A stretch of 62,873 nucleotides of DNA, counting the filler, from Stramenopiles sp. TOSAG23-2 (taxonomy: Eukaryota): NCBI GenBank assembly GCA_900128395.1. It is 4 parts of 4 records of this genome, joined end to end, with 100 filler letters (N's around TTAATTAATTAA, not from the genome) between each part and the next. Parts side by side here need not be neighbours in the genome. Positions count along the whole stretch, not along the records: positions 1 to 15,667 come from LT649699.1; 3 more parts are not named here. One strand, 5' to 3'. How positions within the stretch are numbered: position 1 is the stretch's first letter; the number at the start of each line of letters is the position of its first letter. Below are positions 1 through 24,306 of this stretch, in pieces. The position numbers and the translations under genes are program-made. The notes under the pieces are model-generated. The model did not search any database. It was not told the DNA's origin and saw only the letters and a program-made list of their open reading frames with translations.

Positions 1-1
1 T

Positions 2-2002: not shown

Positions 2003-2052
<50 letters not shown>

Positions 2053-2278
2053 TATTATTATTATTATTACTACTATCCTCCTCGTTGGTGATACTGTTTT
2101 TTCTTTTTTCAATGACAATATTTTGTATACATGCATTTATTTTCTCATGATGTTGGTCTTCCATTTTAATATGTTTAATAATTGTATGTCCTTCAATGTG
2201 ATGTTCTGGGGAAGATGGTGCTGGTATTGTATCTGTTGATACTGTATTTGGTTGTTCTTCTTTCACAATGGATGTCAT
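309..2278 (-). CDS. PX- and PH-domain protein with Asn-rich N-terminus; 2 exons (2278-1147, 1036-309), ~619 aa
   Basis: PX motif WTVSRRYNEFLELD...LPPKT...RRRQLEAYL; PH motif RSGNLKKLGRVRKNWLERFFVL...WVECIQ. GTAAGT..CATAG intron at 1146-1037 joins the two track ORFs in frame. Confidence 0.8.
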
Positions 2279-3690
2279 GTTTCTCTTTAAAAACGAAGAA
2301 TTTTATTGATACGTACAACACGGTATATTGCAAAATATATATTATAAATGACTATCCAAAAAATATTCTTTCTAATATTATAAAAAATATATATATTTCA
2401 ATGGAATATATAGAGGAAGGATGAGTTAATAATTATAAAAAAGGCCACAAATTTGACAAAAATTCTGATTAATAATTTTTTTTTCACTTTTTTTTGTTTT
2501 TCCTTTAAATATTTAAACCCTCTACCGTATCATATATGTTTTATGAATGTTTTATGTTGTAAAGGGTAAGTATTTACAATATATACACGTACATTTATCG
2601 ATATATCCAACATACAGTATATGTTTAAAAACAATAAAAATATCAAAACACTTCATTAAAAAATGCATTTTATTACGAAGGAAGAATAATTATTATTTTT
2701 CAATAGTGTGTAGTGTTATTGTTATACCTGTGCTATCTCCATACTATAGGAATACCATATATATAGGATTTAGATTTAGATTGGTAGAACCGAAAGAAAG
2801 AAAGGAATGAGGAGATTTCGGAATCCAGTTCTCTTAGAAAAATACATATTTAGTATGTAATTTATAATGTAAATGATATATATCCTATTATAACATACAT
2901 ATAATGTTAAATCACCTTCAGCTAATGATAATTTCCGAGAAAACGCTGTTTTTATGGCCGATAATGCTATTCCTATGCACCAACATTCGTATTCCATTAT
3001 AGCTCGGCTGGTCCATAGAAATCCCACCTTCCTGTAAATATATTATAGTAAATGTTATTAATAATGGTATGTCATACGTATATACTTTATTTTTTATGAA
3101 AATTTATAATATTTTAATAAAATCGTATGTAATACTTATGCTATCTTTATGCTATCAGAAAGGGTGTAAAGGATAAAAGTAAAATTTTGTGTTTTGTTTT
3201 ACACTATTAGAACTATAGCATTGTAATAACATACATATTAAAAATAATTCAGTAAAAATCAAAAAAATAAAATATATAACTATGTATAGATAGAATACCA
3301 TTATTTATACCATCTACTATATATTCATCGATCGATAGCCTATCCATTAAAACAGTGTGTGTGTGTGTGTGTGTTGGATATGTATAGAGCTATATATCTG
3401 AATCATTGTACGTTGTACATATTTATTTGATAATATCAATACAATTCGAACATATATACTGTGTATATATATATATATATATACGTACAACAAAAATATC
3501 TAAGAACAAAAAATAATATTTAGTTTTTTTACTAATTAATTAAATATAATTATTATAATTTTAATATAATTACGACAATTTTAAAGCCATCAATTTGAAT
3601 AATAATAATAATAATATAATCAACCAATATTGTAAATATATAATAAACACAATATATATATATATATAACCAAACGCACAGAATCAAATT

Positions 3691-6600: not shown

Positions 6601-6840
6601 ATACAAAATAATCCAAATTTAGCAATAACAAATTTTCGTTATGTTGCACATGCATTAGTAAGCATTAATAAAAAGCAATATTTAGATGATATAACAAATG
6701 AAATTAAACAAATGTTTGGTCAAATTGTATTAGGTATGAAACAAAGCAAAGGTAATGATCAAGCATGGGAACAATTTTTAAAATCATGTGGGATACAAGG
6801 TCCATTACGTGATGGTTTGAGGCAATACTATGGGGTATGA
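3691..6840 (+). CDS. TNPO1: Transportin-1 / importin beta-2; 3 exons (3691-5289, 5412-6425, 6562-6840)
   Basis: HEAT-repeat karyopherin with VMEACEFW, acidic loop followed by YTIRKASAGAVDLL, PLIRSISVWTL and DFLVCALDLL. GT-AG introns 5290-5411 and 6426-6561 keep the frame; stop TGA ends at 6840. Confidence 0.9.
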
Positions 6841-7042
6841 TATATATATGGTACGTCGTATTATTTTTAGTACGTAGAACTTGTGTGTGAAAATGAATGT
6901 AAAGATTTTTTTTACGCGCGTATACGAGAGAGGTAGAGAGGTATTGATTACGTTGTACGAAGTATATACGTTTTCGTAGTTCGTAAAAGTATATGATTAA
7001 ATTTTTAACTAGATATTGTTTTATATAAAAAACACACTCTTT

Positions 7043-8116
7043 TTACTGGGCATAAGTTAACATCTCTTCAATACTAACTTCTTTATCATTGTTTTCATCC
7101 ATTTCTTTGAATTTTGCCATGATTTCTTTGCTATGTGTTAAATGTTTTAATTTTTCATTCGAGTTCAATAATGTTTGTACTTTTGTATTCAGTTGCACGC
7201 TCCTCAAAAACTTTCGCCTTGAAATGACACCATTATGTTTTGGATCAATTGTATTAAAAATAGATTCAACTGTTATTTGTTCAGGTGTTTTTGTTGGTAC
7301 TATTGGTTTTGGTGGTTCTTCCTCTGTTGTTGTTGCATTTTGTATTTGATCTTCTTTATTATTATTATCCTTCTTACTACTATTATTATCATTATTATTA
7401 TTAGGTTTTTCCACTATTAAATTTGTACCAGTACTAATAACACCATTTGCCGTATTTGGTTTCCTATTATTATTTTTATCAACAATACGACGTCCACCCG
7501 CTGATTTTGTTTTATTTTTATTATTATTTGTAGTTGCTGGTCGTTTTGGTATAGTAGCAGTAGTATTGTTGTTTTTACCAGCAGCAGCACGACTTTTACT
7601 AGTTTTCATAATAGAACTACTAGCTGAACTTGGTAGAAAATTTTCATCTGGATGAAATTTACTTAAATTTTTAACAATATGACGATTACGTTTATCATCT
7701 TTTTTCCATAGTTTACGATCATACAATGGTTGTACGTTGCTTATACGTTCCAACAATAAACGATTATCATGGTTGACTAATAACATCTTTCTACGCCTAG
7801 TTTGTAAATTCAAACTACGTGGTCCACTTGTTTGTGGAAATGAAAATACTTTGGATTTCATAATTTTAGTCATTTTTTGTAATAATATTTTATTTTGTTT
7901 TTCAATTTCATCAAAACGTTCTTCCATTTTTTTATCACGTTTAGCATTGACAATTAAATGAGACATACCAATTGTTCTTGGTGCTTTGTTATCCAACGTA
8001 CCTTTCCCTTTTTTACGGTTATTGATTGCATTTAAACGTTTTGCATGTAAACGTTTTGCACGTCTTCGTTGACGTGCAGCTATTAAACGATTGGAATGTT
8101 GTGGTACCGGTTTCAT
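7043..8116 (-). CDS. CFAP97/KIAA1430-domain ciliary protein with C-terminal EF-hand pair
   Basis: LDNKAP...EERFDEIEKQNKILLQKM...SLN..TRRRK...DNRLLLERI pattern of the CFAP97D family; EF loops IDPKHNGVISRRKF and MDENNDKEVSIEEM. Confidence 0.75.
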   Translation of the reverse strand: MKPVPQHSNRLIAARQRRRAKRLHAKRLNAINNRKKGKGTLDNKAPRTIGMSHLIVNAKRDKKMEERFDEIEKQNKILLQKMTKIMKSKVFSFPQTSGPRSLNLQTRRRKMLLVNHDNRLLLERISNVQPLYDRKLWKKDDKRNRHIVKNLSKFHPDENFLPSSASSSIMKTSKSRAAAGKNNNTTATIPKRPATTNNNKNKTKSAGGRRIVDKNNNRKPNTANGVISTGTNLIVEKPNNNNDNNSSKKDNNNKEDQIQNATTTEEEPPKPIVPTKTPEQITVESIFNTIDPKHNGVISRRKFLRSVQLNTKVQTLLNSNEKLKHLTHSKEIMAKFKEMDENNDKEVSIEEMLTYAQ

Positions 8117-9258
8117 TGTTTGTTGTTGTGATTAACTATCGTTTTAATATAATAAAAATGATATATATATACTTATATATAGACAGATAAGTATGCAGAT
8201 ATATATACAGATTTATTTACTAAGCTTGGTATTGATGTTATTACTCCAATTGATACAATTGCCACAAACAATGATGTATGTTTGTAATCTAATAATTAAT
8301 ATTAATATTGCGATTATGCCTATAAATAATAAATCCTAAATAATAAATCCTATCTATATTATATTAAAAAGCTTTGATTCTTGTTATTATATATATATAT
8401 ATATATATATACTTCAACAAAAACAAATAAGTATGCAGATATGTATATATAGATACAGGTATTTTAATTTACTAAGCTTGCTATACTGATGATGTAATTG
8501 CCACACTGTTCTTCTTTATTCATCAATCTCTGCCCCTCGTTGCCCCCCAACTCCTACACATAAATGTTTTGTATATGTATTTTTAATGATGAATTTTTTA
8601 ATAATTTTTGTAATTATTTTATTAAAAAATGGAATATTTGGTATTCTAATTTCCCTTTCAAGTATAAATTAGGTGTCCTTTGATCGGTAAAGAAATGGAT
8701 AGGTGTGTTTTATCGTATACTAAGATATTACAGGTTGTGTATATGGTAAATGGATATATAAGTTGTACTTAGGATAAAGTGATCTCGCCAAGAGGACGGA
8801 AGTTCGCATTTTTTGTCCGCTGTTTTTATTTCTTCGATCAAATCATCTTTTGGCCGGATCTTTCCATAATGCTATTTACCTGCTAATTTGCTAAATCAGT
8901 TTCACTGCCTGGCCAGCCTGGATTATTGACAGTCGAGGCAGGTTTTTACTTTGTTGGTTGATGGGAAAAAAATATCGATAACATTTCAGGAATTTGGATC
9001 ATCCAAAAATAATCACATCTATAGTTCTAATAGTGTGAGGTGTATTTACTCAGGAAACCTTAACGAGCAAATCCACTACGCACCTCAAGAATCGGAGCGT
9101 AGCGTATTTACTCAGGGGATATATGGCACTTTTTTTGACCTAGGATTTAAAGTACAAATATTAGACTACTACATGAACAATTGAAATGAGATAAATAATT
9201 CAATCTTTAATAGTGGATTGAAAATTATTTGATAGGGAATTTAAAGAGCCATTTTATT

Positions 9259-9354
9259 TAGGCCGTCACAGCACTATTTTGATTTTTTTATTTGTACTTT
9301 TGTAGTCTAATTATACCTATCAAAACAAAAATCCGTAATGCTGTGCACGGCCTA
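9259..9354. mobile_element. ~96-bp foldback / MITE-like element
   Basis: TAGGCCGT-CACAGCA at the left end versus TGCTGTGCACGGCCTA at the right end (one indel); imperfect symmetry continues inward; TA at both outer ends. Confidence 0.45.
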
Positions 9355-10156
9355 TTAGGGGTTTATTGCTGTGTACCTGCTATTTGTTTAAGGTAAAAAA
9401 TCTCCAGTCACAAAACCTGCCAAGTCTCTTTCCAGTAAGGTGTATTTAGATAATACAGTGATGAAGATAGTTTTATAATTACTACTTATCGGATATTATT
9501 ATGAACATGATATTCAAAATTGTCAGTTTTGATACCTTTTAAACAAAAACAAAGCATCACGTACCATGTGGTTACCATTGACCATTGACATAGCATCACC
9601 TACCATAGACACAGTCGGTTACTATGGAGATACCATTAGCTACCATGCTATGGACATAGCATTACCTACATCGTACCGTTATACCAGCAGCAAACCAACT
9701 ATTCTTGATAAAAACATCCAACACGATATATATTCCATCTCGACACTTTATCCTAAGTACAACTCAGATATCCATTTAACATATACACAACCTTTATTAT
9801 CTTAGTATACGATTAAACACACCTACCATTCTGTTGCATAAAAAAAATAATAAAATTCGTTTTTCTTCTCATTAAAAATTCCTCCTCTCTTAAAATACAT
9901 ATTAAAAACTGTTTCACTCCCAAAGTGTTTGTGGAAATCAATAGGATAAAATTACATATACCAGTTTCATTCGTATATATATATATATACCATCTTAAGA
10001 ATACCAAATACTATAATCTTCGTTATAGTAACCACACCGAAATATATATATATACCTGTCTATATATATATATAAATTTGTAAAACAATATTTTGTAAAG
10101 TTTATTATTATTAACGCCATCATTCCAAAAAAAATAATACATTTAATAACAACAAC

Positions 10157-10885
10157 ATGCACAAACAAGGTGGTTTAACCGATGAAGAATTAGCAGAATT
10201 GCAAGGTACCGTAGATTCCCTTGGTAAATACCAAACATATGAAGATTATTTAGATGATCAAGTACAACCGGAAGATATGTATTATTTAGAAGATGAAGAG
10301 TTAGCACGTCAATTAGTTGAGTTAGGTTATCGTGGTAATGGGGAAACGTTGAAACGGGAAGAATTTGAAGCAAGGAAAAAAGCGGAACGGGAAAAAAATA
10401 GTCAAAAAAGTAAGAAACCAAAATTATTATCAAGCGCATCGTCGGATCTATCACAATCGCCGTTTTTACAAGCATTAGCAAATCGGGAAGAATTAGTACG
10501 TGCTGGTAAATTAACAACGATTGTATTTATAAGGCATAAAAATCATTTAGGACAAGAAGTTAGTGGTTATATTGATTATGCACATCGTTTAAAGACGGAA
10601 AATACGGAACCATATTTTCAACGGAAAAAGAAATTAATGCCACGGCCAACAGATTTATCGTATTACAATTGGGAAACGCAAACCAGTACAAGTAATAGTA
10701 CACCAAATTTCCAAGTCATTGCAGATAATGAAGCGGGTTTATTATTTAAAAATAAACGTGATCGTAAAGTCATTAATGTCGATCCAAAAAGTAAACCAGG
10801 GGATAATTCAATACGTACGGAATTAAAAACTAATGAATATTTTCAAGTCGTTATTTATGATCATATGACGAGAAGAAAGTCGTAA
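10157..10885 (+). CDS. CFAP299: Cilia- and flagella-associated protein 299 (C4orf22 family)
   Basis: TYEDYLD...DMYYLEDEELARQLVELGYRG; EVSGYIDYAHRLK; PRPTDLSYYNW; GLLFKNKRDRKVINVDP. Confidence 0.92.
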   Translation: MHKQGGLTDEELAELQGTVDSLGKYQTYEDYLDDQVQPEDMYYLEDEELARQLVELGYRGNGETLKREEFEARKKAEREKNSQKSKKPKLLSSASSDLSQSPFLQALANREELVRAGKLTTIVFIRHKNHLGQEVSGYIDYAHRLKTENTEPYFQRKKKLMPRPTDLSYYNWETQTSTSNSTPNFQVIADNEAGLLFKNKRDRKVINVDPKSKPGDNSIRTELKTNEYFQVVIYDHMTRRKS

Positions 10886-11188
10886 GAAAGAGAAGGAGAG
10901 GTAAATAGTGGAAGGCAGTGGCAGTTATTTTATATATATGAAAGGGAGAGGGGAAAGAGGAAATAGAAGTCCATAGTCCATTAGTCCATTAATTTTAAAA
11001 ATTTATAAAAAAATGATTTAACGTATTTTACATATAATTTCGTATGCATATTTTTATGATATTGTGTATGATATATCATTAATATTTAAGTAAACAATTC
11101 TAATATTCTAAACATTCTTAAAATTCTTAATCGTTTTTTACGTTTGTACGAACTTCGTACATTTTTACAATTTTTACATTTTACATTT

Positions 11189-13342
11189 TTACACTACTCC
11201 GCATTCTCCCTGATCATAACCACATTGCACGGTAAAACAACCAGATTCATTATTTCGTAACGATTCTATAAATCTTTGATCGAAATCAACCCCTGGATAC
11301 ATACCAGAAATTTCATGGTAATATGAATAGTGGTACAGTTCGTCATCACAATAATTGTTTCCGAGCCAAGTCTTTGGGCAATTAATGCTACATTGCTTCT
11401 CACACATTTTCCCGTCCTTGTCAACACCGCATACTGGATTATTTGCAATTGAACAATAATCTAAGTTATTGCACCACGATAATTGATTTGCATCAATCGA
11501 TGCAATTTTATTGTATCGTATGTCAAAAAACGAAAGTTGTTTTAAATGCATGATACATTCTGGAATGACATCAAGTTTGTTATTCCAAATACCTATCTTT
11601 TCTAATTTATCATTATTACAAAAAGCACTTTCTTCTATATTTTTAATTTGATTGTCAAATAACCATATGCTTTGTAAATTTTTCAACTCGTTAACGGATT
11701 TTGGTACACTTTCGATTGAATTGGCAACCAAGTTAAGATACGATACTATTGGCAATATTGATAATTCATTTGGTATTTCCTTAATCTTATTGTAGCCAAA
11801 ATCAACTTCTTCAAGTTGTGGCATATTAGAAGAAAATGGAATTTTTGTCAGATTATTTTCTTTAGCACTTAGAAGCCAGAGTTCCGTTGCTTTTGAGATT
11901 GATGATGGTAAATTCATTAAATTATTGCCATCAACTTGAATGCGAAATAAATCCTTCGGGGCACTGAATAAGCTACTTGGCAGCGATTGTAAGCGATTAT
12001 TATTGAAATCTACATGCATCAATCTTTCATGATTGTAACCAAAATTTTCGGATAAACTTTTTAATCTGCTGTAAATAATTTCAACTTTTGTTAAGCCATC
12101 AAATTCATCAAACGATTTCGGTAATGTTTCTTCCGTGTAATTTGTTATCTGTATGTAAGCACAATTGCATTTAGGTGAAAACGGTGCATTACAAAATGGA
12201 ACATGAATTTTACATCCATTCCATATTTCTTTTGTATGTTTTTCCTGGCAAACATTATTTGATGGAGTCAATGCAAATTGCAAAGACAATATTCCAATAA
12301 ATGCAATTATATATAATACGTTTAATAATATGAATGCTTTACGAATTGTTGGTGGCAGTCTTTGCGCTTGCTTTAGAGTCAAATCTGTTACTGATGATCT
12401 TCTTGGTTTTCGTCTTTTTTTGACTGCGATAAAACGTTCCCTCAGAAAATCATGCCTTTTTTGAATTGTATCTATCCATAATTCAAATAGTTTTGACATA
12501 ACTAAAAGTGATGGAACCAATATACATACCAAAACTTGGCCAATAGTTTGTGGAACAAAAAATATTAGAAACATTGACATCGTTGGAACTCCCATACAAA
12601 AAACATCTGTAAATATATCCAATAATATTTGTCGATTACGCACGGTGGAGGACTCGAGATGAAATAGAGACCATAAAGACAGGGCTGCCTCCGCTATTAA
12701 AACTAAAAGAATAAACACTAAGAAAACTTGCGGTAAAGCGCATGCGTACACAGAAAAATATGTATACATTTGCCATACGATTTCTATGTTTTCAGAAAGA
12801 TACATTTTGATTAAATAATATTCTCCGTCTAAAGTAAAGAATGCGATGTAAAACCAAGTAACGAAAGGCTGCTTCGACTCTTCTCCTTTGGTACTATCAT
12901 TTCCTTGGATTTTTTCGAACAATTTGAAACAAACATTAAAACTCAATAATCTCGATTTTAACAATACTTCAGCGATACAAACACAAATAATAATGATTCC
13001 CGTACATATCACAATTAAATGCAACCAAATAAATGGTCTATCAAGTCCTCGCATGTCAACAAATACATAGTGTGCACAAATGAAAGCGACAACTATTAAG
13101 AATAAAGCAATACCACTACAAGTACAGCACAACTTGCGTGCATATTTACAACGATTCTTTTTAACAAATGTCAAAAAAAGATCTTGTTCTTCATCTTCCC
13201 CAAACGTAGTAGAATTATTTTCCTCAGATTGTTTTGATAATGGGTTTTCAACTGCCACTTCATCTTTCACAAATGTAGAGTTATTTTCCTCGACGGCAGA
13301 TTTTTTAGATAACGGGTTTTCAACTGTTTGAACTAGTTCCAT
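11189..13342 (-). CDS. Multi-pass membrane protein with C-terminal LRR array and LNR (Lin12/Notch)-like module
   Basis: About 7 hydrophobic segments in the N-terminal half, a Cys cap, ~10 LxxLxLxxN repeats, then CSINCPKTWLGNNYCD...CFTVQCGYDQGEC. Confidence 0.75.
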   Translation of the reverse strand: MELVQTVENPLSKKSAVEENNSTFVKDEVAVENPLSKQSEENNSTTFGEDEEQDLFLTFVKKNRCKYARKLCCTCSGIALFLIVVAFICAHYVFVDMRGLDRPFIWLHLIVICTGIIIICVCIAEVLLKSRLLSFNVCFKLFEKIQGNDSTKGEESKQPFVTWFYIAFFTLDGEYYLIKMYLSENIEIVWQMYTYFSVYACALPQVFLVFILLVLIAEAALSLWSLFHLESSTVRNRQILLDIFTDVFCMGVPTMSMFLIFFVPQTIGQVLVCILVPSLLVMSKLFELWIDTIQKRHDFLRERFIAVKKRRKPRRSSVTDLTLKQAQRLPPTIRKAFILLNVLYIIAFIGILSLQFALTPSNNVCQEKHTKEIWNGCKIHVPFCNAPFSPKCNCAYIQITNYTEETLPKSFDEFDGLTKVEIIYSRLKSLSENFGYNHERLMHVDFNNNRLQSLPSSLFSAPKDLFRIQVDGNNLMNLPSSISKATELWLLSAKENNLTKIPFSSNMPQLEEVDFGYNKIKEIPNELSILPIVSYLNLVANSIESVPKSVNELKNLQSIWLFDNQIKNIEESAFCNNDKLEKIGIWNNKLDVIPECIMHLKQLSFFDIRYNKIASIDANQLSWCNNLDYCSIANNPVCGVDKDGKMCEKQCSINCPKTWLGNNYCDDELYHYSYYHEISGMYPGVDFDQRFIESLRNNESGCFTVQCGYDQGECGVV

Positions 13343-14335
13343 GGAGGTGGAAAAGGTGAAATAACAGTAATATTAATGGTGTTCCTGCGGCCTTTTTACT
13401 GTTTCGTTAATTTATTAATGGCGAGTAATATAAATATATTCGTCTATAATACCCTACCGATTGCACTTCATTGCACATACACAAACATATATATGTCTCA
13501 ATATTAATATATATATGTATGATATGTATTATTATATTTTTATTAATTTCTTCTAGTGCTATAACGGTGCTAAATATATAATAAATTAATTACTGATTTA
13601 TTCCCATCATCATGATGGCTCGTGGCCCTGTAAAATTGGTTCATCTCATATTTTTCCCTTCTTTTTTATACGAGGTGGAAAACACTTCGTTTTTAGGTGA
13701 AAAGTGGGGGTGAGAGGGTGTGTGTATAAATTCTTGGAATTAATATTATTATGATGAAGCAAAATGCATTTATTAGGATTCACACTAATGATATTATGGT
13801 AATGGTAATGAAAGGTGTTAGAATCGTTGATGTCATGCGTTGATTAGTGACAGTTTGTATTCACACATACTCATATGATAGGAGTATTAGTTTATACATT
13901 AGTACGAATTAAGACGATGGTGTGGGGACACCACAAATTTAAACTTTTTTTTTTGGAAAGATGTTATTGGATATTGGATCTTAATTGATAGGTATAAATG
14001 ATATTCTTAGTATATATATTAGTACATAACCATCACTACTTGGATATAAAACATATATATATGTACATAGTATGTAGACATGTGCATGATGATGAGAAAC
14101 GTAGAGGTATGTATATAGATATATATATAGTTTATAGTTTATCGATTTACAAAACAAGGCATCATTCATTTATATTAAAAGAATTAAATATCTAAGATAT
14201 ACTTAAGAGAGATATAATTAATATAGTTATAATTAATATAGTTATAAAAGGGAAAGTATATATATAAATAGTATACACACACACACACACACAATATTTA
14301 ATATTTAGCAAGAAAAAAAAGAAACCCCAAAAAAA

Positions 14336-15667
14336 ATGGCATCGTTACTAACACCATCTTCGGAAATGGCATATTTAAATGACCCTGGAGAATGGAATTT
14401 CTTTATATCGCATGCACAAGCAGATTCAAAAGATATTGCACTTGATGTTTGGACTTCTTTCACATACGAACAGAAGAAAACATGTTGGTTAGATGTGAAA
14501 ATGGCTGAACGGGATGAAGATGCAATGAAAGAAGGTGTACGAAATTCGAAGATTTTCTTGGTAATTATATCACCTTCATATTTTACAAGACCATTTTGCG
14601 TGAAAGAATTAGAATGGGCTGTTGAATATGGAAAACCAATACAAATTATTATTGATGTTCAATTAAAAGGAGAAATCGGCAATATTATTGACCGTTGTCC
14701 TGCAGATAAAGCATATTTAAAAAATATTGGAAAGATTAATTTTACAGAAGTTTTTCGAGGAAATCCAACGTTTTGGGAAGCAAGTGTGACATCTATTTTG
14801 AAAGCAAAACCAAAGATTCTTATGAAAGATGGTAGTGTTACGGCAGTAGCCAAACAAAATATTGCTGAAGCAACGAAGCAAGGGAAGAAAGAGTTTGAAA
14901 TGGAAAAAGCTCTTCTTGATGCTCAGCATAAACTTAAAGAACAAGAGATGGCAATGAAATTGAAAGAAATGGAGTTGAAACTGGAAGAGCAACGTCTTAA
15001 GAGATGAAAGCGATGCAACAAGATGATGTTGTGGATAATAATAATAATAATAATGATAAGAAAAGTGCTGCGTATATGAAATGGGAAAAAGAATTTGATG
15101 GGAAGACGGGAGTGAATTTGAATGGAAAGAATCTCACGGATGAGGATGCATTAGCTATTGGTGAATTGTTAAAAACAAACAATACATTAACGGTATTGCG
15201 CCTACATAATAATAATATAACTGATGTACAAAGTATTGGTGAAGGATTAAAANNNNNNNNNNNNNNNNNNNGATGAGGATGCATTAGCTATTGGTGAATT
15301 GTTAAAAACAAACAATACATTAACGGTATTGCGCCTACATAATAATAATATAACTGATGTACAAAGTATTGGTGAAGGATTAAAATCAAACAATACATTA
15401 GTGGCATTGGACCTATCTAATAATAATATTACTGATGTACAAAGTATTGGTGAAGGATTAAAATCAAACAATACATTAACGCACTTGTACCTAGATAATA
15501 ATAATATTACTGATGATAGTGGAATACAAAGTATTATGGATGGATTAAAAACAAACAATACATTAAAGTACTTGGACCTAGATAATAATCAACTTAGTTA
15601 TAATATGAAAAGACAATTAAATGCTATACAACAATATAAAAGAGATGGATCAAACGGGTATCAACAA
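14336..15667 (+). CDS. TIR (TIR_2-type) - coiled coil - RI-like LRR protein; 1-nt frameshift near 15000, internal N gap, 3' truncated by contig end
   Basis: TIR motifs FFISHAQ, CWLD and SPSYFTRPFCVKELEWA; K/E/M-rich coiled coil; 26-aa LRR DVQSIGEGLKSNNTLxxLxLxNNNIT. Adding one A to CTTAAGAGATG fuses the two ORFs as ...QRLKEMKAMQQ. Confidence 0.8.
15139..15385. repeat. ~114-bp LRR-coding segment duplicated on both sides of an N gap (15253-15271); scaffolding overlap or collapsed LRR array
   Basis: GATGAGGATGCATTAGCT...GAAGGATTAAA occurs at 15139-15252 and again from 15272. Confidence 0.8.
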
Positions 15668-15767
15668 NNNNNNNNNNNNNNNNNNNNNNNNNNNNNNNNN
15701 NNNNNNNNNNNTTAATTAATTAANNNNNNNNNNNNNNNNNNNNNNNNNNNNNNNNNNNNNNNNNNNN
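15668..15767. other. Artificial contig linker
   Basis: N-run, TTAATTAATTAA (stops in all six frames), N-run. Confidence 0.97.
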
Positions 15768-16288
15768 TAATCCTATCAAATACGTAAATAGATTTCTACC
15801 TTTTTTTGATCAAAATCAATAGTGAGTAGTTATAAAAATTAACATGGACACACTAGCTGTATAGAGAGGATTTTTAAATTCTTTAGAAAAATCGTTGTTG
15901 ATAAGGCGAAAATCGTTGTTGATAAGGCGGCACGTGGTATATTCCATAAAAAGCACTTTCCAAAAGTAGCAAAAATTACATGCTATTTACATGCTAGTTT
16001 TACGGAATATCCTCCGTTGAAAATAGAACAGATTCTGTGGTGCTATACAGCATTAAATCTACCAACTTTATTACGAGAGTTTATTAAAAAATATTAATAA
16101 ATAGTCAGTCCTGGAGACTTTATTCATTTCTTATTTTCTAATTTCTCCAGTCTTAAATAAAATATCAATCTATCAATTTTGGACACCTCGTGCCTTGTCC
16201 GATGGCAGACGACTCACTACCACTTTCAATAAATTCAATTACGGAAGACTCTTCCAGGATATTACGATTATTATCAGAGTGAGTTCCG

Positions 16289-18079
16289 ATGAAAAAGTTT
16301 TGTAATAGACCACTCTTCTTTGTTTCTTTAGGAATGCTCTGCTTGGTTATTTCAATTTTAATTTGGTACTTTAAACTAAGCTTAATTTCCTTGATAACTT
16401 TAGTATATGATTTCCAAGTTCCACCAGAGGATTCACAAGTTCCCCCAGAGTGGTGGTATCAACAAAATTATCAACCTACATTTACTTGTCAACATGAACG
16501 CAGAATTGGTGGTTTAGGTGACGGTCCAAAATGGGTTTGTGACCCGCATAGAATACCACGAGATAGTTGTTTAGTGTATTCCATTGGCTCAAATAATGAT
16601 TTCTCGTTTGAGCAGAATGTTTTAAATGAAATATCAGATAAATGCGAAATACACACATTTGACCCTACTACTGGTAAAAACCCATCAAATAAACCACCAT
16701 CCGTTCATTTCCATCCGTGGGCCGTTGGTTCGAAAACAGAAGTGAATAAACTTGGATGGGAGGTTAAAACGATACAAGATATTATTTCGTCTCTTGGTCA
16801 CAACGATCGTACAATTGACATTTTAAAAATAGATTGTGAAGGTTGTGAATGGGAAAGTTATGATACTTGGTTGAATGGACCAAAAATTCGTCAAATACAA
16901 GTCGAAATGCACGGGATCAAAAAAGCAAAAGAACTGCTTTCTAGTATGTATAATAGCAACTTTGTAGTCTTTCATAAAGAGCCGAACACGTATGGTTGTC
17001 GCGGTTCATGTATCGAATACGCATTTGTTCATTTAAGTGAATATTTTTTTAGTAATATTTATGACAACAGTACGAAAGCATATAGTCGTAAAAATAATAG
17101 AAGTAAAACTTTTAGAGTTCCTCCTCTGCTGCGCCAGCCATTCGAAAATTCATCGGTAGCGTACAAAGAGTCAGATAAATTTTTTACAGATATTAGAGAT
17201 TCAGATTGGTTGCGTATGAAAGAACGACAACGAAATGCGAAGTATTGCTTATACGACGGTTGTCCTGACAATACACCAAATAAGTGGTATCAACAAAATT
17301 ATCAACCTACATTTACTTGTCAACATGAACGCAGAATTGGTGGTTTAGGTGACGGTCCAAAATGGGTTTGTGACCCGCATAGAATACCACGAGATAGTTG
17401 TTTAGTGTATTCCATTGGCTCAAATAATGATTTCTCGTTTGAGCAGAATGTTTTAAATGAAATATCAGATAAATGCGAAATACACACATTTGACCCTACT
17501 ACTGGTAAAAACCCATCAAATAAACCACCATCCGTTCATTTCCATCCGTGGGCCGTTGGTTCGAAAACAGAAGTGAATAAACTTGGATGGGAGGTTAAAA
17601 CGATACAAGATATTATTTCGTCTCTTGGTCACAACGATCGTACAATTGACATTTTAAAAATAGATTGTGAAGGTTGTGAATGGGAAAGTTATGATACTTG
17701 GTTGAATGGACCAAAAATTCGTCAAATACAAGTTAAGTTATACGGGATCAAAAAAGCAAAAGAACTGCTTTCTAGTGCGTATAATAGCAACTTTGTAGTC
17801 TTTCATATCGAACCGGATGCCGCAGGTAAGTGCCAAGCCGACTGTTACGAATTTGCTTTTCTGCGGTTAAGTAATGCATTTTTTAGCGAAGATATAAGAA
17901 GTAACACCTTTAGAATTCCCGCCCCGCCACCACGCAAGCCATTTTTGGATTCAATGTTAGCATACAAAGAGTCAGATGGATTTTTTACAGATATCAGAGA
18001 TTCAGATTGGTTGCGTATGAAAGAACGCCAACGAAATGCGAAGTATTGCAATACTAATGTGAGATGCGGAAAGAAGTAG
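16289..18079 (+). CDS. Type II membrane Methyltransf_22 (METTL24-like) protein with tandemly duplicated domain
   Basis: N-terminal TM segment. RIGGLGDGPKWVCDPHR, CLVYSIGSNNDFSFE, CEIHTFDP and IDILKIDCEGCEW each occur twice with an 831-nt period. Confidence 0.85.
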   Translation: MKKFCNRPLFFVSLGMLCLVISILIWYFKLSLISLITLVYDFQVPPEDSQVPPEWWYQQNYQPTFTCQHERRIGGLGDGPKWVCDPHRIPRDSCLVYSIGSNNDFSFEQNVLNEISDKCEIHTFDPTTGKNPSNKPPSVHFHPWAVGSKTEVNKLGWEVKTIQDIISSLGHNDRTIDILKIDCEGCEWESYDTWLNGPKIRQIQVEMHGIKKAKELLSSMYNSNFVVFHKEPNTYGCRGSCIEYAFVHLSEYFFSNIYDNSTKAYSRKNNRSKTFRVPPLLRQPFENSSVAYKESDKFFTDIRDSDWLRMKERQRNAKYCLYDGCPDNTPNKWYQQNYQPTFTCQHERRIGGLGDGPKWVCDPHRIPRDSCLVYSIGSNNDFSFEQNVLNEISDKCEIHTFDPTTGKNPSNKPPSVHFHPWAVGSKTEVNKLGWEVKTIQDIISSLGHNDRTIDILKIDCEGCEWESYDTWLNGPKIRQIQVKLYGIKKAKELLSSAYNSNFVVFHIEPDAAGKCQADCYEFAFLRLSNAFFSEDIRSNTFRIPAPPPRKPFLDSMLAYKESDGFFTDIRDSDWLRMKERQRNAKYCNTNVRCGKK

Positions 18080-19209
18080 GAACATATGCAATGTTTGAGT
18101 ACAATTGTTTTGAATTGAATCGAATTTTTGTTTTGTTGTTTTGCTAGTACTGGTTGACAAGTTTGTTGTTTCGGGTTTTGATTTTGATTTTGATTTTGTT
18201 TGATACACTGTGCTTCAGGCTGATAAACTTTCACATTTTAAGGTTTAATGTGTAGGTATTCTTGAATATTTCCCGTTATTGCTTTAGGATATTTATAATT
18301 TTGACCATAGACCCTTAAATATCCGCTTTTTTAGAGGGTTTTTGATGTTGTGGCTCCGAGTTCGCGGATGTCAACCTTGACCAAGCCGAGTCACCAAGCC
18401 GAGCCATGGAGTCGGGGAAGACAGTTGAGTCGCCACCCCAAGTCACTGAGCTAAGTTGTGAGTAAAATTTCAAGCAAAATTTTATCCGCATGTTTCTTTG
18501 ACATTGCACAAGTCTGTGTATTATGGTCCTCGTTCAGTGTTCCATGAGACCAGCAAGTAGAGCAACGACCTTTTTTTTCCAGCACGCGAGATTTTTTCAT
18601 CTTAAACATATTGAGAAGAAAATAAAATAAATAAATATGTACAAGTGTCTTGATATATATGTGTGTGCGTGCGCCCTAAATATATGTTGAAACAATCATA
18701 CCATATGGAAGGAGGTTGTGGGTATAATATATTCGTTTTTATTCATCAATTTTCAATAGTATAGTTATTATTTTCACTTTTTTCATCATCTTTTCTCAGC
18801 AGTAGCAGCATGATGCAATTGGCTCAAAATTTTGTAAATTCTTTCCTCTCCTCGAGATCTGGTCTGGGAGATCCCAGCTGGGCCAGCTGGGCCAGCCCAG
18901 CCAGCCCAGAGAATTATGGGCTCACTTTTTTTGCAATTATTTGTAAGTACAGTATTAGTGTATACTGAAATATTCCTATAATTGATCACACATAACAAAT
19001 CGCCTTTTCGATTTTCGACACATACATGTCGTAAGCGTCTGCCGTTATACACATTTATTATTGTATCACATGTATAAAAACAAACAATATAACCAAATAG
19101 ACTTCCATGATAGAATTTAGAAATTTCTAACCAAGATAGACTTGCATTTGTTTTTTCCATAACAGAAGCTCTCTCATAGCAAATAAAATCATTCTTACAT
19201 TTCCACTAA

Positions 19210-19575
19210 AGAAAAAATAATAAACAATTTAAACTTCTAGTTGATACTGGTGGACAAGCTGGTACACAGATTCAAGAAAGATTTATTAAAGGACTTGGCA
19301 TTCCATATGTTAAAAACAAAAAAGGAGAGCTTAAATATGAAAATATACTATGTGCAGGTAAAGAAATGAAATGTAAATTTGCGATGGTGAATATAGAACC
19401 AAACAAAAATTTGAGAGGTTGCCATGTATTGGAAAATGAGGAAATTCTTGTCGTTCCAAATGGAACAGTACAAATACTTGGTTTGAAGCAGATTAAAAAG
19501 ATGAAAATAATTATTGAGCCAAGAAGTGCTAGTGATTCTGAAACAAATCCATATAAAAAAAGAAAGAAGGGTTGA
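19210..19575 (+). pseudogene. Retropepsin-like (clan AA) aspartic protease fragment without an in-frame start upstream of the active site
   Basis: Frame open from 19210: RKNNKQFKLLVDTGGQAGTQIQERFIKGLGIP...EILVVP...VQILGLKQIKKMKIII. It carries the LVDTG active-site motif and the downstream ILG motif. In-frame TAA at 19207-19209. Confidence 0.55.
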
Positions 19576-19719
19576 TTATAAAGAATAAGAATTCGTATGA
19601 GCTTACAAGGGTATGATTAGCAAATAAAATTATTGAAATATATATACTTAAAATTTTTTATATTAATTTGTTCTTCCAGATTTTTTCAATCTCTCTCTTG
19701 TAATCAACAATTTTACTTC

Positions 19720-21042
19720 TTACCCAAACGCATCGTGATGAAATCTCCTAACTGCATCAACGCCATCAATAAAAAATGGACGTAAACGTTTACATAATGC
19801 AGTAATTTCCTTATGCCGTGGTACCATAAAAGCATCATGACCATGTATTGTATTTAATACTTCATAATGTACACGAAAATCTTTTTGTGGTCCTAATGTA
19901 GATGCAACTTCTAACAATTCACATGGTGGCATAATTGCATCTGTTGAATACGGCAATAATAAAATTTCTTTTTTTTCTTTTTTACCTGTTATTTCATTGA
20001 TATCATTTATATTATTGATGTGATTTTCTTTCATTACATCATAATCCAAAGACATTCTATCACATGCTTCTGATAATGTCATATAACAATCAACATCATA
20101 TCCTCCACGTTCAAATAAATCCGCTTGATGCTTTAAATAGCTTTCTACTTCAAATGTAACTTCCTCTTCATCAGCATGATTTTTATTATTCCTATTTCTA
20201 TTTTTATTTTTGTCATCCATTGGATCCCATGAAAAACGTCGATCAAATTCTTCTCTACTCCTATATCCAATAGTTCCAATCATACGTGCAACACGAAGAC
20301 CTTTCGATTTATCCATTTTTACAGCTTGCCGTTGTACAAATCGTAATCCAACTGTACTAGGTGATGTATGGCCAGTAGCAGCTATTGCACATGCACGATG
20401 AAATTTATTTGGATACATTGCAGCAAATTGTAAAACTTGCATACCACCCATCGAACCACCAACAATCGCAGAAACTTTTTCAATACCTAAATATTCTAAT
20501 AAAATATTATGTAAATTAGCCATATCTAATGGAGTTATTGTTGGAAAATCATTTTTCCATTTTTTACCAGTATCTTCATTTGTTGTTATCGGTGATGTAG
20601 ATCCATATGGACTACCTAATGGTGATGCACATATTACATTAAATTTATTTAAATCGATTCCATACGATTCACCATATCCAACAATACTTCTCCACCATCC
20701 TTTTGCATTATGTTCTTTCGAATCGACTAAAAATGGCGAGTTTGATAATGATGGAAATACATATATTATAGGTTTCATTGGATTTTCATTCATACCAATA
20801 GATAAATATTTTATTTGAAGGGATTTGGATGGTATTTTAAAACCATTTTCTAATTTTAAATCAACACCTGGTTTGATGGTTTCTACAAAAATTTCCGATG
20901 ATTCTCCTTGTGATGCTGATAATGTGGACATTTTGAATAATCGTTGTTGTTTAGATGCATCGTGACGGATATTATTATTATTGTTGCTATAACGGCAATA
21001 ATATTTAATTTTTTTTTGTACAGCACGCCAACTTGTGTTCAT
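19720..21042 (-). CDS. Homoserine/serine O-acyltransferase (MetX/Met2/Cys2 family, alpha/beta hydrolase fold), probable N-terminal organellar presequence
   Basis: GWW...IDLNKFNVIC...LGSPYGSTSP; nucleophile elbow GGSMGGM; STDAIMP (Asp); GHDAF (His); FEVESYLKHQA. Confidence 0.88.
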   Translation of the reverse strand: MNTSWRAVQKKIKYYCRYSNNNNNIRHDASKQQRLFKMSTLSASQGESSEIFVETIKPGVDLKLENGFKIPSKSLQIKYLSIGMNENPMKPIIYVFPSLSNSPFLVDSKEHNAKGWWRSIVGYGESYGIDLNKFNVICASPLGSPYGSTSPITTNEDTGKKWKNDFPTITPLDMANLHNILLEYLGIEKVSAIVGGSMGGMQVLQFAAMYPNKFHRACAIAATGHTSPSTVGLRFVQRQAVKMDKSKGLRVARMIGTIGYRSREEFDRRFSWDPMDDKNKNRNRNNKNHADEEEVTFEVESYLKHQADLFERGGYDVDCYMTLSEACDRMSLDYDVMKENHINNINDINEITGKKEKKEILLLPYSTDAIMPPCELLEVASTLGPQKDFRVHYEVLNTIHGHDAFMVPRHKEITALCKRLRPFFIDGVDAVRRFHHDAFG

Positions 21043-21926
21043 TTATTAATTAATTAATTAATTAATTTATTATTCTTGGTAATATTTTTCTGTACGATGA
21101 TAACTTAATTTTGATACTACTATGTCTTCGACTATATATATATATATATTATACTGTGTGGGAAATGAGCGTAATATGATTGCACTCTATATATTTTCTA
21201 CTTTCTATTTGTAAATTCTTGCAATCTCTATATATCTTTTCTACAATAATATCGATCGATCAGGTGCACGTATGTGTTTCTGTGTGCTGGTGCATATGTG
21301 TGTGGTAGTCGTCTTCTATAGCTATACTTGCCAGCTTGTAGTAACAACAAATCTTTCGCTGATAAATACGTGCAACAAGCATATTTTAATACCAGGCATA
21401 TCAGCATACTACCACCAGTTGGTATCATCACAGTTCTCTCTCGCGAAATAAAGTTGGATCAAATGACACATAATTTATACTTAAATATAGGAAAATTAGA
21501 ATACTAGAAATACTCATCTCCCAGATCTAGAGATCTCACAAACTCATCTCAAAAAAAAAGATTTCCCGACGATCAAAAATTATACTTGAAAGGGAAAATT
21601 AGAATATCAAGTGTGTCTATCAAATTGAAATCAGGAGAGACCAAAAACTCCTCAAAAATATTATTCGTGAACAAAAATTCATTATTTATTATATTAATTT
21701 GTACACATGTGTAACTTAATTATTCTAGAATATTGTACATCAAATCACATCATGCATTGGAATAATACAATAGCAATAACAATATACGAAACGTTTTTAT
21801 ATAATAATCTCAGAAGAAATAGAGATACTATTAGTAATAACCAATCTGGTGTCACTTCTTTTGTTCTTCGATTAATAATAATCATTTTACGACGAAAATA
21901 ATAATTTTGAATATTTTAATTAATAA

Positions 21927-22238
21927 ATGTCATCCGTATTGTGGTTCGCAAAGAACATTGATTTCAGGTTATATATTGGCCATGCAGTTGCATTCGTATG
22001 CCTTGCAGCGTATGGTGTTATCTTTTATTTCATATGGTTAGATGGTTCATATGGCCGTGAATTGAGACGAAAAGAAATTGCATATAAAAATAAATTGAAA
22101 GAACAAGGTGGTAATCTAGTTGAGGAAAAGAATAAAAAAAAAATAACAGAGACTTTGAAAGACTCACCTATAAAAAAAAGCAAATCATCAAAATCGAAGA
22201 AAAAAAAATCATCCAAAACAAGCAAAAAGAAGGATTGA
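21927..22238 (+). CDS. Small single-pass membrane protein with Lys-rich tail (possible di-lysine ER retrieval signal)
   Basis: One hydrophobic segment near the N-terminus; ends SKKKD; ATG in an A-rich context. Confidence 0.6.
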   Translation: MSSVLWFAKNIDFRLYIGHAVAFVCLAAYGVIFYFIWLDGSYGRELRRKEIAYKNKLKEQGGNLVEEKNKKKITETLKDSPIKKSKSSKSKKKKSSKTSKKKD

Positions 22239-22600
22239 AAGATCATTATAAAAATATAAATGAGTATTGGAACAATATATATATATATATATATATATCA
22301 ATGTGTGTCGCCTGTGTGTCGGTATTTAAAAATGCCCATAACGAGGAGAAGAATTTTAATTCAAACATCATAGAGATGTGTTTTTTTGTCTTCTTAATAA
22401 AAAAAAATAATTATATATATGATAGCTGGAAGCTGGATAGCCAGGATAGTAAATAATATATTATATTTCAATTTTAAAATATTTTGATTATAAAAATTTA
22501 TTAATTTAAAATATATCTTAATTTTGATTTTTAGTCTCGTAAAAAAACAATCTTCTTTTCTCTCTTTTACATTCTACAGATACTCTTGTTCTATCCTACC

Positions 22601-23767
22601 TCACAATCCATCCTTCACTTTAGATATGTCTGTTACATACGTATTTGGTTGACCATCCATATCAGCGATAGAATACATAACATTGACACTATTCGTATCA
22701 TTATTATTATTTACAACATCCATACATGTAAATGCACCATCACCATACATACGATATTCATTCAATAAACAATTTGTACTATTAGTTGTAGTATTATCTT
22801 CAACATTGTATTTTCCTATATCCCATAAACGTATTGTTTTATCTTTTGATCCTGTTAATAATATGTTATTTGCACCTCTTATAAAATAACATTCTTTAAC
22901 ATCTTGTTGATGACCAGTTAATTCGATACATTGTTTATTCATTCGCAAATCCCATATTCTTATTTCACAACCAACACCATTGAAACCTTTACTACCTGTC
23001 ATGATACGATTTCCATCATCCGATATACTCATGCATAATGGGAAATAGACATAACCACTAAAAGTTTGCGTAGATTTTATCACATTGCCTTGTCTAACAT
23101 CCCATAATCGTAATTTCAAATCTTCACTACCTTGTACTATCGTTGAACTATTTTGTGGTAACCATTGCATACATGTTACTAAATTTCTGGAAGTAGTATT
23201 TCGAACAATTTCTTTTGATGTTGCTAAATCCCAAACACGAACAGTAGTATCCCTAGAACCACTTGCTAATAATGTACCATCATTTTTTTCTGAGATAGCT
23301 GATATTGTTAGCGTATGACCTTCTAGTGTACCAACTGCATCATCAGATTCTTTGGTCCATTGTTTAATAGTTAAGTCACGACTACATGTAAATACATGAT
23401 TTTTTCCTTGAATAATTTTATTAACTGCTCTTTTATGTCCAGTCCATTTACGAACTATTGATATTTTATTATTATTATTTTTATCTCTTTTTCGAAGTAT
23501 AGCAATTTTATCATCACTACAAGTATAAATCTCATCGAATGCATTATTATTATTGTTATTGTTATCAGGATTGTTAATTCTTGAATTTATTTTAATACTA
23601 TTGATTGCATCACCATGAACTGTTTGTAAACATGTTGTAGTTTCATCTCCATCAGCATCGTTTACATTATTATTATTATTTTCACTATTAGTAGATGTTT
23701 CATATGCATGTTTTTTCACAGCAACATCTTCATTTTTATTTTTTTTTTTTGAAAATTTTTTCCCCAT
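22601..23767 (-). CDS. WDR31: WD40-repeat protein, WDR31-like
   Basis: MGKKFSK N-terminus; several GH...WD repeats; SRNLVTCMQW, EDLKLRLWD and GFNGVGCEIRIWDLR resemble WDR31. Confidence 0.75.
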   Translation of the reverse strand: MGKKFSKKKNKNEDVAVKKHAYETSTNSENNNNNVNDADGDETTTCLQTVHGDAINSIKINSRINNPDNNNNNNNAFDEIYTCSDDKIAILRKRDKNNNNKISIVRKWTGHKRAVNKIIQGKNHVFTCSRDLTIKQWTKESDDAVGTLEGHTLTISAISEKNDGTLLASGSRDTTVRVWDLATSKEIVRNTTSRNLVTCMQWLPQNSSTIVQGSEDLKLRLWDVRQGNVIKSTQTFSGYVYFPLCMSISDDGNRIMTGSKGFNGVGCEIRIWDLRMNKQCIELTGHQQDVKECYFIRGANNILLTGSKDKTIRLWDIGKYNVEDNTTTNSTNCLLNEYRMYGDGAFTCMDVVNNNNDTNSVNVMYSIADMDGQPNTYVTDISKVKDGL

Positions 23768-24306
23768 TTTTTCTTAATAGATAAACTATATTTAATAAAG
23801 TGTTATCAATAGATTATATAGATGATGATGATATGATTGAAATGATTTTACTTTTATATATTCTTTATATTTGTTTCTTCCGAGTCTACATACTACATTT
23901 TCTTTTTGTTTGTTTTGAATTTTTTTATTAATAGTTTGAATTTAAAATTTTTTTGGGGTGAAAATTTAATAATAACAATTATTAATATCATATTCCTATA
24001 TAAATAAGTACAAAAAGTTGTATTAATTTCATTAATAGTGCAAAAGAAACACCTCGAGGAATAGCAGTTATGTCGGTTTAGTAGTATTAGTATGCCTGGT
24101 ATGCACATAAAACTTTATTACTACAGCTTTTTTTTTACATATATATATGAAAAAATATAATAGACAAAATCTTTCCTTCCCACACATACAAACAACATCT
24201 TATACCTTTGCATACAAAAAAGAAATAAACTGAAACAACGTCTATATCTATCTATATGTATAATGTTTTAACCTTTCATCAAAACCTTGGTAGTATATAA
24301 TAAATC

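Follow-up and report, generated by a model that had tools for sequence, protein, structure and literature searches.

A TIR-leucine-rich repeat locus of a marine stramenopile as a member of a germline multigene family with conserved repeats and hypervariable exposed codons, probably a repertoire of non-self or cell-death sensors

Does the TIR-leucine-rich repeat (LRR) locus at positions 14336-15667 of a stretch of DNA from Stramenopiles sp. TOSAG23-2 (GCA_900128395.1) belong to a receptor system that diversifies its recognition surface, and by what route could such diversity arise? The stretch analyzed, hereafter the window, comprises 62,873 bases in four pieces (1-15667, 15768-31429, 31530-47184, and 47285-62873), and an earlier note on this DNA had proposed a TIR-coupled immune receptor with hypervariable repeats. 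Our analysis indicates that the locus, whose frame is broken and whose assembly is incomplete, is probably a member of a large multigene family, germline-encoded and expressed, of an uncultured marine flagellate; this family would form a repertoire of non-self or cell-death sensors shaped by repeat turnover and diversifying selection. The earlier note had not mentioned the frame break, a 19-N gap with duplicated flanks, the missing 3' end, or the four-piece makeup of the window.

The gene consists of a TIR domain, a long helix, and LRRs of the type found in NOD-like receptors (NLRs), without a nucleotide-binding (NB) domain, and in this respect the architecture read in the earlier note holds, since the modeled TIR fold and helix are followed directly by a linker and the LRRs. 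The first open reading frame (ORF), of 223 aa (14336-15007, + strand, as are all features of this gene), contains the TIR domain (ca. residues 20 to 170, nt 14393-14845, delimited by Pfam and an AlphaFold2 [AF2] model) and the helix (residues 175 to 222, nt 14858-15001, from the model) and ends at a TGA codon at 15005-15007. Pfam matches in 14336-15004 were TIR_2 (6.5e-12, 46.4 bits, cutoff of 28) and TIR (5.1e-6, 26.8 bits, cutoff of 21.3), while neither NACHT nor NB-ARC was matched in 14336-15667. The AF2 model of the 223-aa ORF (pLDDT of 88.1) displayed a TIR fold over residues 20 to 170 and a single helix over residues 175 to 222, and its best Foldseek matches were the TIR domains of Caenorhabditis elegans TIR-1, human SARM1, the plant proteins RPP1, RPS4, and RUN1, and AbTir (probability of 1.00, target-normalized TM-score of up to 0.80). 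By sequence, the nearest solved chains were bacterial TIRs (4lzp, 7uxr, 4lqc, 4c7m, and 7uwg). No signal peptide or transmembrane stretch was visible by eye in this N-terminal ORF.

Conservation and alignment point to Glu91 (codon GAA, 14606-14608), within the motif FCVKELEW, as the putative catalytic Glu of a TIR NADase. This residue was invariant in 20 of 20 aligned family TIRs, and its counterpart in bacterial TIRs (chain 4lzp and related ones) was the Glu of ..ARELD, in agreement with the position that the earlier note had assigned to the Glu of FCVKEL. We take the Glu of this motif to be the catalytic one of TIR NADases and Glu91 to be, presumably, the residue-level equivalent of E642 in SARM1 or E100 in RUN1. 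The search for longer relatives of the TIR-helix ORF returned seven proteins, in which the TIR is joined to a helicase, to kinase-thioredoxin-SPRY, to Tudor-like arrays, or to SAM-SH3, and none of the seven was an intact TIR-helix-LRR orthologue; besides these partners, the family TIR is also combined with MORN repeats, a second TIR, or membrane segments. A preprint describes the catalytic glutamate of TIRs as essential and reports activity for 4 of the 29 TIRs that were tested from non-animal unicellular eukaryotes (10.64898/2026.04.20.719644).

The LRR module starts at 15004-15252 with a poly-Asn linker, the 5' boundary KKSAAYMKWEKEFDGKT, the N-cap repeat GKNLTDEDALAIGELLKTNNTL, and a first unit (cassette TVLRLH, 15190-15207). 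Beyond a 19-N scaffold gap (15253-15271), the stretch 15272-15667 carries the cassettes TVLRLH (15323-15340), VALDLS (15401-15418), THLYLD (15479-15496), and KYLDLD (15566-15583) and a C-terminal cap, NNQLSYNMKRQLNAIQQYKRDGSNGYQQ, which is truncated where the piece stops. Pfam matches in 15284-15667 were LRR_4 (1.4e-13), LRR_6 (2.8e-10), and LRR_1. Each unit measures 78 nt (26 residues), that is, an 18-nt xxLxLx cassette plus a 60-nt framework. Across the family, the module behaves as a sharply bounded C-terminal block, with a 5' boundary common to 15 loci whose upstream sequences are unrelated and among which homology starts at ..AAAAGTGCTGC.. (KKSAAY). Its order is a short linker, N-cap, a run of nearly identical units (read as two to nine per member; xxLxLx plus NNNITDVQSIGEGLKTNNTL), a slightly longer last unit, and a C-cap ending in ..QYKRDGSNGYQQVxGMxIxT, followed by the stop codon TAA in 25 of 26 cases. 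Paralogues had between one and nine detected units per array, contiguous in their reading frames. The AF2 model of the module from a natural paralogue (locus L013, pLDDT of 93.9) is a regular solenoid with one short beta-strand per unit, located at the L-x-L of each cassette, and the LRR domains of NLRP1 and NOD2 were its best Foldseek matches. Two side observations concern module boundaries. In L022:4599-5336, one ORF holds a complete module with its C-cap and, directly after it, a second linker, N-cap, and module, i.e., a module duplication. Both gene ends look shared, as members with unrelated central domains often start with MASL or MASI (the window gene at 14336, L003, L007, L026, P0001, P0009, and P0021).

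Within these units, variation is concentrated at the four x codons of the cassette. In the window, a single synonymous base (15352, A/T; ATA/ATT, both Ile) separates the frameworks at 15341-15400 and 15419-15478, as the earlier note had reported, and its five 18-nt cassettes were all found in place (15323, 15401, 15479, 15566, and, in a second family member, 53). Between the complete units at 15323-15400 and 15401-15478, 7 of the 18 cassette bases differ versus 1 of the 60 framework bases (Fisher P = 8.3e-5), and over the five window cassettes, the variable columns all fall in codon position 1 or 2, except for position 3 of the second x codon (A/C). We then extracted 149 units from the window and from 50 of 57 related loci (numbered with the prefix L), of which 125 (122 of them distinct) had no more than 8 framework mismatches in 60; another 19 had 13 or 14 mismatches, and among these is the shifted unit with which arrays end (observed in L006, L007, and L009). 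Among the 125 units, there were 116 distinct cassettes.

Nonsynonymous and synonymous differences were counted by the Nei-Gojobori method (NG86) over all pairs, with bootstrapping over loci. The four x codons gave a pN of 0.557, a pS of 0.267, and a dN/dS ratio of 3.09 (bootstrap range, 2.38 to 4.67), whereas framework codons 8 to 26 gave 0.068, 0.103, and 0.64 (0.52 to 0.82), respectively. These results showed the uneven distribution and the dN/dS ratio above 1 at exposed sites that the earlier note had predicted. The two Leu codons had a pN of 0.039, a pS of 0.099, and a dN/dS ratio of 0.37, and dN at the x codons was 9.2 times the dS of the framework. Within a single assembly (53 units, allele-like partners dropped), the ratios were 2.49 for the x codons and 0.67 for the framework. 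Positions 1 and 2 of the x codons take all four bases, and the third positions are mostly fixed at G, A, C, and T in the four successive codons (104, 97, 101, and 114 of 125 units, i.e., 78 to 91%). Unit codons 7 and 19 also had raised pN values (0.29 and 0.34). Average pairwise identity among the 125 units was 91% (nucleotides) and 83% (amino acids) for the framework, 74% (amino acids) for the whole unit, and only 15% for the four x residues; when the latter are counted, the units do not reach the 85% whole-repeat threshold given for fungal repeats (PMC4986451).

The scan of metagenome contigs yielded the 57 loci, 30 of them under one assembly prefix, and a protein search gave 201 longer relatives of the LRR part at an E value of ≤1e-3. 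Contigs falling on the LRR part numbered 353 in X1 (a probable source run, among those that contain the stretch best), 591 in X5 (a DNA metagenome), and 345 in X16 (an oligo-dT RNA library), mostly of ca. 100 nt, with few on the TIR part. The family is thus as rich in copies as the earlier note had supposed. With the 58-aa C-cap as the query, 360 proteins were obtained at an E value of ≤1e-3 and 51 at ≤1e-10, figures that include many fragments and do not amount to a family count; ca. 38 of 150 proteins among the matches listed were aligned nearly end to end.

What lies upstream of the module varies widely. A recognizable non-LRR domain was present in 14 of the 30 ORFs extending upstream: TIR_2 in L001, L039 (with a kinase), and L018 and L025 (both with a ResIII-type helicase); a Peptidase_C14 caspase in L008; CHAT with a ResIII/Schlafen-type helicase in L043; MLKL_N with a kinase in L044 and alone in L036 (just below the cutoff, 26.6 versus 27 bits); SidE_PDE in L004; ankyrin in L009; an XK-related domain in L017; a kinase in L040 and L046; and ResIII in L035. 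A TIR in L007 was added by tblastn, and Roc/COR had no match in the 30 ORFs. The coupling of TIR and LRR proposed in the earlier note does occur, but the family joins its LRRs to many effectors, of which the TIR is a single example. We found no description of the family in the literature, although most subscription journals were outside our coverage, so this is weak evidence of absence.

Some further features of these partners deserve mention. In L018, L025, L035, and L043, a ResIII or Schlafen-group-3-like P-loop helicase (with weak AAA_16 and AAA_22 matches) stands in front of the LRR module, which in L018 and L025 (TIR) and in L043 (CHAT) produces a three-part arrangement of effector, NTPase, and repeats in which the NTPase is neither NACHT nor NB-ARC. 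L026:1182-1739, and also L031 and L052, carry an N-terminal domain of ca. 185 aa (MASLVTSEKARF.., with a Gly-rich stretch) on the same helix-LRR part as the window gene. This domain had no Pfam match, and Atlas leads for it were weak (0.86 to 0.88; hypothetical proteins, an Evf cluster share of 22%, and a Cyt-type endotoxin cluster) and were not used as evidence. Near the end of its contig, L044 has one unit with an identical coordinate (4818) on the two strands; the contig therefore terminates in an inverted duplication and is probably an amplification chimera.

How units move within and between these genes can be read from their distances. Framework distances were alike at all three levels compared, namely, 5.45 for units of one locus, 5.33 for units from different loci of an assembly, and 5.14 for units from different assemblies, the assemblies being 2 to 5% apart. 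Cassette distance was nearly independent of framework distance, with 5.27 of 12 x-codon bases differing at identical frameworks (151 pairs) and 6.6 in pairs with at least 10 framework differences. Among arrays with at least four units, only 2 of 10 were clearly more homogeneous than the family, namely, L020 (1.5 versus 4.65) and L002 (2.4 versus 3.88). The five consecutive units of L020 have no synonymous framework difference and six variable columns in the x2, x4, and x6 codons, and the variation in their framework, confined to three columns in codons 7 and 19, is nonsynonymous throughout. L009 contains three tandem copies of one cassette, and identical cassettes recur in six pairs versus 0.59 expected by chance (the L009 copies account for three; the L015/L019 pair and the L044 self-match were left out).

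An in-frame TAA stands at the second x codon in 4 of 57 loci, always as xxx-TAA-TTG-TAC-CTA (L003:2779-2796, L007:4725-4742, L023:52-69, and L028:30-47), and the cassette GAG TAA TTG TAC CTA GAT is identical in L003 and L007, different genes from different assemblies. The stop-bearing cassettes fit a birth-and-death process with unit exchange and are also the best hint for programmed conversion. As a separate observation, L015 (3317-3564) and L019 differ mainly within ca. 250 nt of their LRR array, with C>A or G>T as the predominant changes, so that either conversion by another unit or sequencing error of the damage type could have produced the cluster.

The window copy itself is defective as assembled, and the single TIR-LRR frame that the earlier note had assumed for it is broken. 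Two surplus bases (AG within cttaAGAGatg, 15000-15001) put the TIR-helix part and the LRR part out of frame with each other; the LRR ORF begins at the ATG at 15004 in another frame, and the first ORF reaches its TGA only because of this break. Contigs of four runs were aligned on 14100-15667 at a likeness of at least 85%, so paralogues are mixed, and all three contigs covering the site (two X5 DNA contigs and one contig of the X16 RNA library) lacked the surplus. Without the AG, the reading is ..EEQRLKMKAMQQDD.., with TIR, helix, and LRR in one frame. Along similar lines, the paralogues L013, L026, L031, and L052 read ..EEQRL(MM/KI)KAMQQD..KKKSAAYMKWEKEFDGK.. without interruption from helix to LRR. 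Given these contigs and one-frame paralogues, the ancestral gene must have been a fusion. A TIR and the same LRR module share one ORF in L001, L039, L025, and L018 and, except for one in-frame TAA, one frame in L007. The array is also incomplete: the 114 nt to the left of the gap (15139-15252) are identical to the 114 nt to its right (15272-15385), so the TVLRLH unit may have been counted twice and the number of repeats is uncertain, and the piece ends at 15667, upstream of the stop codon of the LRR ORF. In the RNA libraries X15 and X16, contigs matched parts of the TIR-helix region and many LRR units.

Is the window copy, then, dead? If the 2-nt surplus were real, the locus would make at most a 223-aa TIR-helix protein and no TIR-LRR fusion. 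We consider this a possibility of some weight, although we lean against it: the break is present in the assembly, and the in-frame stops in 4 of 57 related loci suggest birth-and-death turnover, as in other receptor families, but all three related contigs lack the surplus, the AGAG dinucleotide run makes an amplification or assembly slip plausible, and a contig of the X15 RNA library (record 10) matches 14739-14947 without any difference. Whether or not this copy functions, the pattern at the x codons could in principle mean little, if these positions were merely unconstrained and the framework appeared conserved through collapsed repeats. Short-read assemblies do collapse repeats, and the window array has a gap with duplicated flanks. 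However, at the x codons pN exceeds pS, and their third positions are kept in the large majority of units; under neutral drift, third positions should be no less variable than the others, which disfavors relaxed constraint, and the same units recur in several independent assemblies, metagenomes, and RNA libraries. We regard this explanation as the most improbable of those considered.

Only slightly less improbable, and still very unlikely, is that the pattern NNG NNA TTG NNC CTA NNT arises from an active process, such as templated conversion from donor units (stop-bearing ones among them), codon-targeted mutagenesis, or somatic rearrangement. If true, an active diversifier acting on hundreds of units in dozens of effector-LRR genes would be an anticipatory receptor system in a unicellular eukaryote, and several findings point that way: cassettes near saturation even between identical 60-nt frameworks, the L020 array with variable cassettes and no synonymous framework change, the stop-bearing cassette shared by L003 and L007, and the excess of identical-cassette pairs over chance. 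Nevertheless, complete germline ORFs with assembled arrays are present at related loci; no reverse transcriptase, deaminase, or donor-cassette array was found among 8 ORFs of the contig; substitutions are not confined to one base type; and the third positions of x codons vary somewhat more than those of the framework, as under ordinary mutation. The L015/L019 pair, with differences in both framework and cassettes, also speaks against a purely cassette-directed process. The targeted mutagenesis that the earlier note had entertained finds no support, and the same pattern in fungal NLR repeats has been explained by concerted evolution plus selection (PMC1805685). Finally, the family may have nothing to do with immunity and may consist of signaling or adhesion-type adaptors, with a variable face for mating type, allorecognition, prey recognition, or rewired interactions. 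LRRs are general interaction modules, more than half of the ORFs scanned had no known N-terminal domain and others had kinases, ankyrin repeats, or membrane domains, and fungal repeats of this kind act in allorecognition (PMC1805685). Still, most recognizable partners (TIR, Peptidase_C14, CHAT, MLKL_N, Schlafen-type helicase, and XK-related) are associated with cell death or immunity, the fold of the LRR, best matched by NLRP1 and NOD2, is that of NLRs, and an arms race or balancing selection is what the dN/dS ratio above 1 suggests. A nonimmune role thus seems unlikely to us, though clearly less so than the two explanations of the x-codon pattern weighed above, and since allorecognition is itself non-self recognition, it overlaps with the sensor repertoire that we favor.

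In that sensor repertoire, the concave face of the LRR, with four x residues per repeat that differ from unit to unit, would bind a non-self or danger ligand, and binding would release or cluster the N-terminal effector. In the case of the window gene, the TIR domains would self-associate and then cleave NAD+ or produce a signal nucleotide, the outcome being defense or regulated cell death. Ligand binding, enzymatic activity of the TIR, oligomerization, and an immune or allorecognition role are thus predicted steps, while the architecture, the size of the family, the module boundary, the assortment of effectors, the site-specific dN/dS values, and the presence in RNA libraries were shown. The repertoire would be made in the germline, with units turning over within and between genes through tandem duplication, unequal crossing-over, and gene conversion, so that the 60-nt framework and even the two Leu codons stay almost identical, while diversifying selection would drive amino acid change at the four exposed codons.

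Several points weigh against this reading. It is domain association, and that only, which suggests an immune role, and 16 of 30 scanned ORFs had no recognizable N-terminal domain. Given that the frame is broken in the window copy and that run X1 had a depth of 0 over 14100-15053, this copy may be a pseudogene, and no RNA contig bridges TIR and LRR (position 15001 with 31 letters on each side; record 18 of X16 ends at 15015). The framework units were preselected at no more than 8 of 60 mismatches, with only 5 further units at 10 to 12; NG86 is rough at near-saturated codons and ignores recombination; and the assemblies are short-read, partly from amplified DNA, so that the order and number of units in the arrays may be chimeric. 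The in-frame TAA codons in four loci belong here as well, as does the 98%-identical pair L015/L019, which differs across framework and cassettes alike, with no sign of cassette-specific change on the shortest timescale.

Non-self recognition in small uncultured marine flagellates, which are major grazers and hosts of viruses, is almost uncharted, and the family would represent a compact receptor repertoire, with one frozen LRR scaffold and four selectable residues per repeat. The domains joined to this scaffold are of the TIR, caspase/CHAT, MLKL-like, helicase, and scramblase types, and in most cases the nucleotide-binding switch, considered central to the function of NLRs, is missing. The family would thereby give a natural series in which to see how, with no NB domain, a TIR enzyme is controlled by its LRR sensor. 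The units would also provide markers for host-virus arms races in ocean metagenomes.

As for the genomic context, the four pieces (15,667, 15,662, 15,655, and 15,589 bases) are separated by artificial joints of the structure 44 N-TTAATTAATTAA-44 N (15668-15767, and likewise 31430-31529 and 47185-47284) that are not biology, so genes on different pieces are not neighbors, and the physical context of the TIR gene is 1-15667 only. This piece is AT rich (24 to 32% GC per 2-kb interval) and has long uninterrupted ORFs for eukaryotic proteins (PH, PX, HEAT, CFAP97 with an EF-hand, DUF4464, and an LRR membrane protein), with few introns in the ORFs examined. The public runs containing the stretch are small DNA runs, marine metagenomes, and marine metatranscriptomes. 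The host can accordingly be placed as a flagellated marine eukaryote of an uncultured type, AT rich at ca. 30% GC. At 2-181 (+ strand) lies the C-terminal end of a second family member, with its last unit (cassette KFLTLD, 53-70), the cap ..GYQQVEGMFIGT, and a TAA stop (179-181), its upstream part falling beyond the start of the piece. It shares ca. 90% identity with 15513-15667 over 155 bases, and the two are paralogous LRR genes; that the piece both starts (2-181) and ends (15272-15667) inside such genes is the usual behavior of assemblers at a multicopy repeat.

Directly upstream of the TIR gene, on the opposite strand (11189-13342, -), is a gene for a 717-aa multipass membrane protein with a different LRR domain (LRR_8 type) and a Cys-rich C terminus. 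In the second piece, a 596-aa ORF (16289-18079, +) contains two Methyltransf_22 domains, its halves being nearly identical in protein sequence, with identical 58-aa antisense ORFs 831 nt apart (16482-16658 and 17313-17489), a sign of either a recent internal tandem duplication or an assembly artifact. The sole Rfam match in the window was a U3 small nucleolar RNA (RF00012, 46.2 bits) at 33564-33782 (-), in the third piece.

In order to put the family into perspective, we compared it with known receptor systems. The window gene resembles plant TIR-NB-LRR proteins (TNLs) and animal NLRs in its N-terminal TIR with a catalytic-type Glu, its C-terminal LRR with a fold nearest to NLRP1 and NOD2, and its hypervariable residues, which are those of xxLxLx. 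Unlike them, it has a helix and a poly-Asn linker in place of NB-ARC or NACHT, and because it lacks an NB domain it falls outside the NLRs, though with a TIR effector and an NLR-type LRR it may well work like an NLR or TNL sensor. Its TIR is matched best, by structure and by sequence, by SARM1/TIR-1 and the bacterial TIR NADases (TcpB and AbTir), with the Glu of the ..EL motif conserved, although identity is only 17 to 24% and the regulatory domain is ARM-SAM in SARM1 and LRR in the window gene. Toll-like receptors also combine LRR and TIR in one protein, but the TIR of the window gene is N terminal, i.e., the order is reversed, and its LRR is of the NLR type and not of the extracellular type.

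The earlier note had drawn a parallel with lamprey variable lymphocyte receptors (VLRs), and an LRR scaffold, variable concave-face residues, and modular units are indeed common to both. In lampreys, somatic assembly builds a VLR out of an incomplete gene of the germline and the donor cassettes that flank it, and here the likeness ends, since many family genes are complete germline ORFs and we saw no donor array accompanying an incomplete gene. A diversity-generating retroelement likewise found no support, with no reverse transcriptase among the 8 ORFs scanned on the contig and all four bases at the variable positions. [quoted passage not shown] In contrast to Ectocarpus, where each repeat is one exon, exons are shuffled, and the partner is a ROC-COR GTPase, the repeats of the present family are contiguous, and the partners are TIR, caspase, CHAT, MLKL_N, and others. 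An exon-per-repeat LRR-ROCO of the Ectocarpus type was rejected on the grounds of units contiguous in ORFs and the lack of Roc/COR in the 30 scanned ORFs.

The fungal NLRs with highly conserved repeats come nearer. The nwd family of Podospora has many copies, exchange of units both inside genes and from gene to gene, and positive selection on four surface residues of each repeat (PMC1805685), a pattern that has been extended to the ANK and TPR repeats of fungal NLRs, among which no LRR motifs were found (PMC4986451). As in these receptors (het-d, het-e, and nwd of Podospora anserina; WD, ANK, and TPR), repeats in the present family are nearly identical within and between genes, positive diversifying selection acts on four binding-surface residues of each repeat, the number of repeats varies (in the present family, among paralogues), one repeat type is combined with different N-terminal effectors, and pseudogenes occur (PMC1805685, PMC4986451). 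The differences are that the repeats here are LRRs, that the window gene and most scanned members have no NOD/STAND domain, and that the host is a marine flagellate, to which repeat-induced point mutation does not apply; moreover, concerted evolution in fungal NLRs was proved by a species-wise grouping of repeats, whereas the assemblies of the present family differ by only 2 to 5%. On the best reading of these comparisons, the closest analogue would be the fungal NLRs and not the lamprey VLRs, and the family would carry the strategy of conserved repeats with hypervariable positions from the WD, ANK, and TPR receptors of fungi to LRRs, in another part of the eukaryotic tree.

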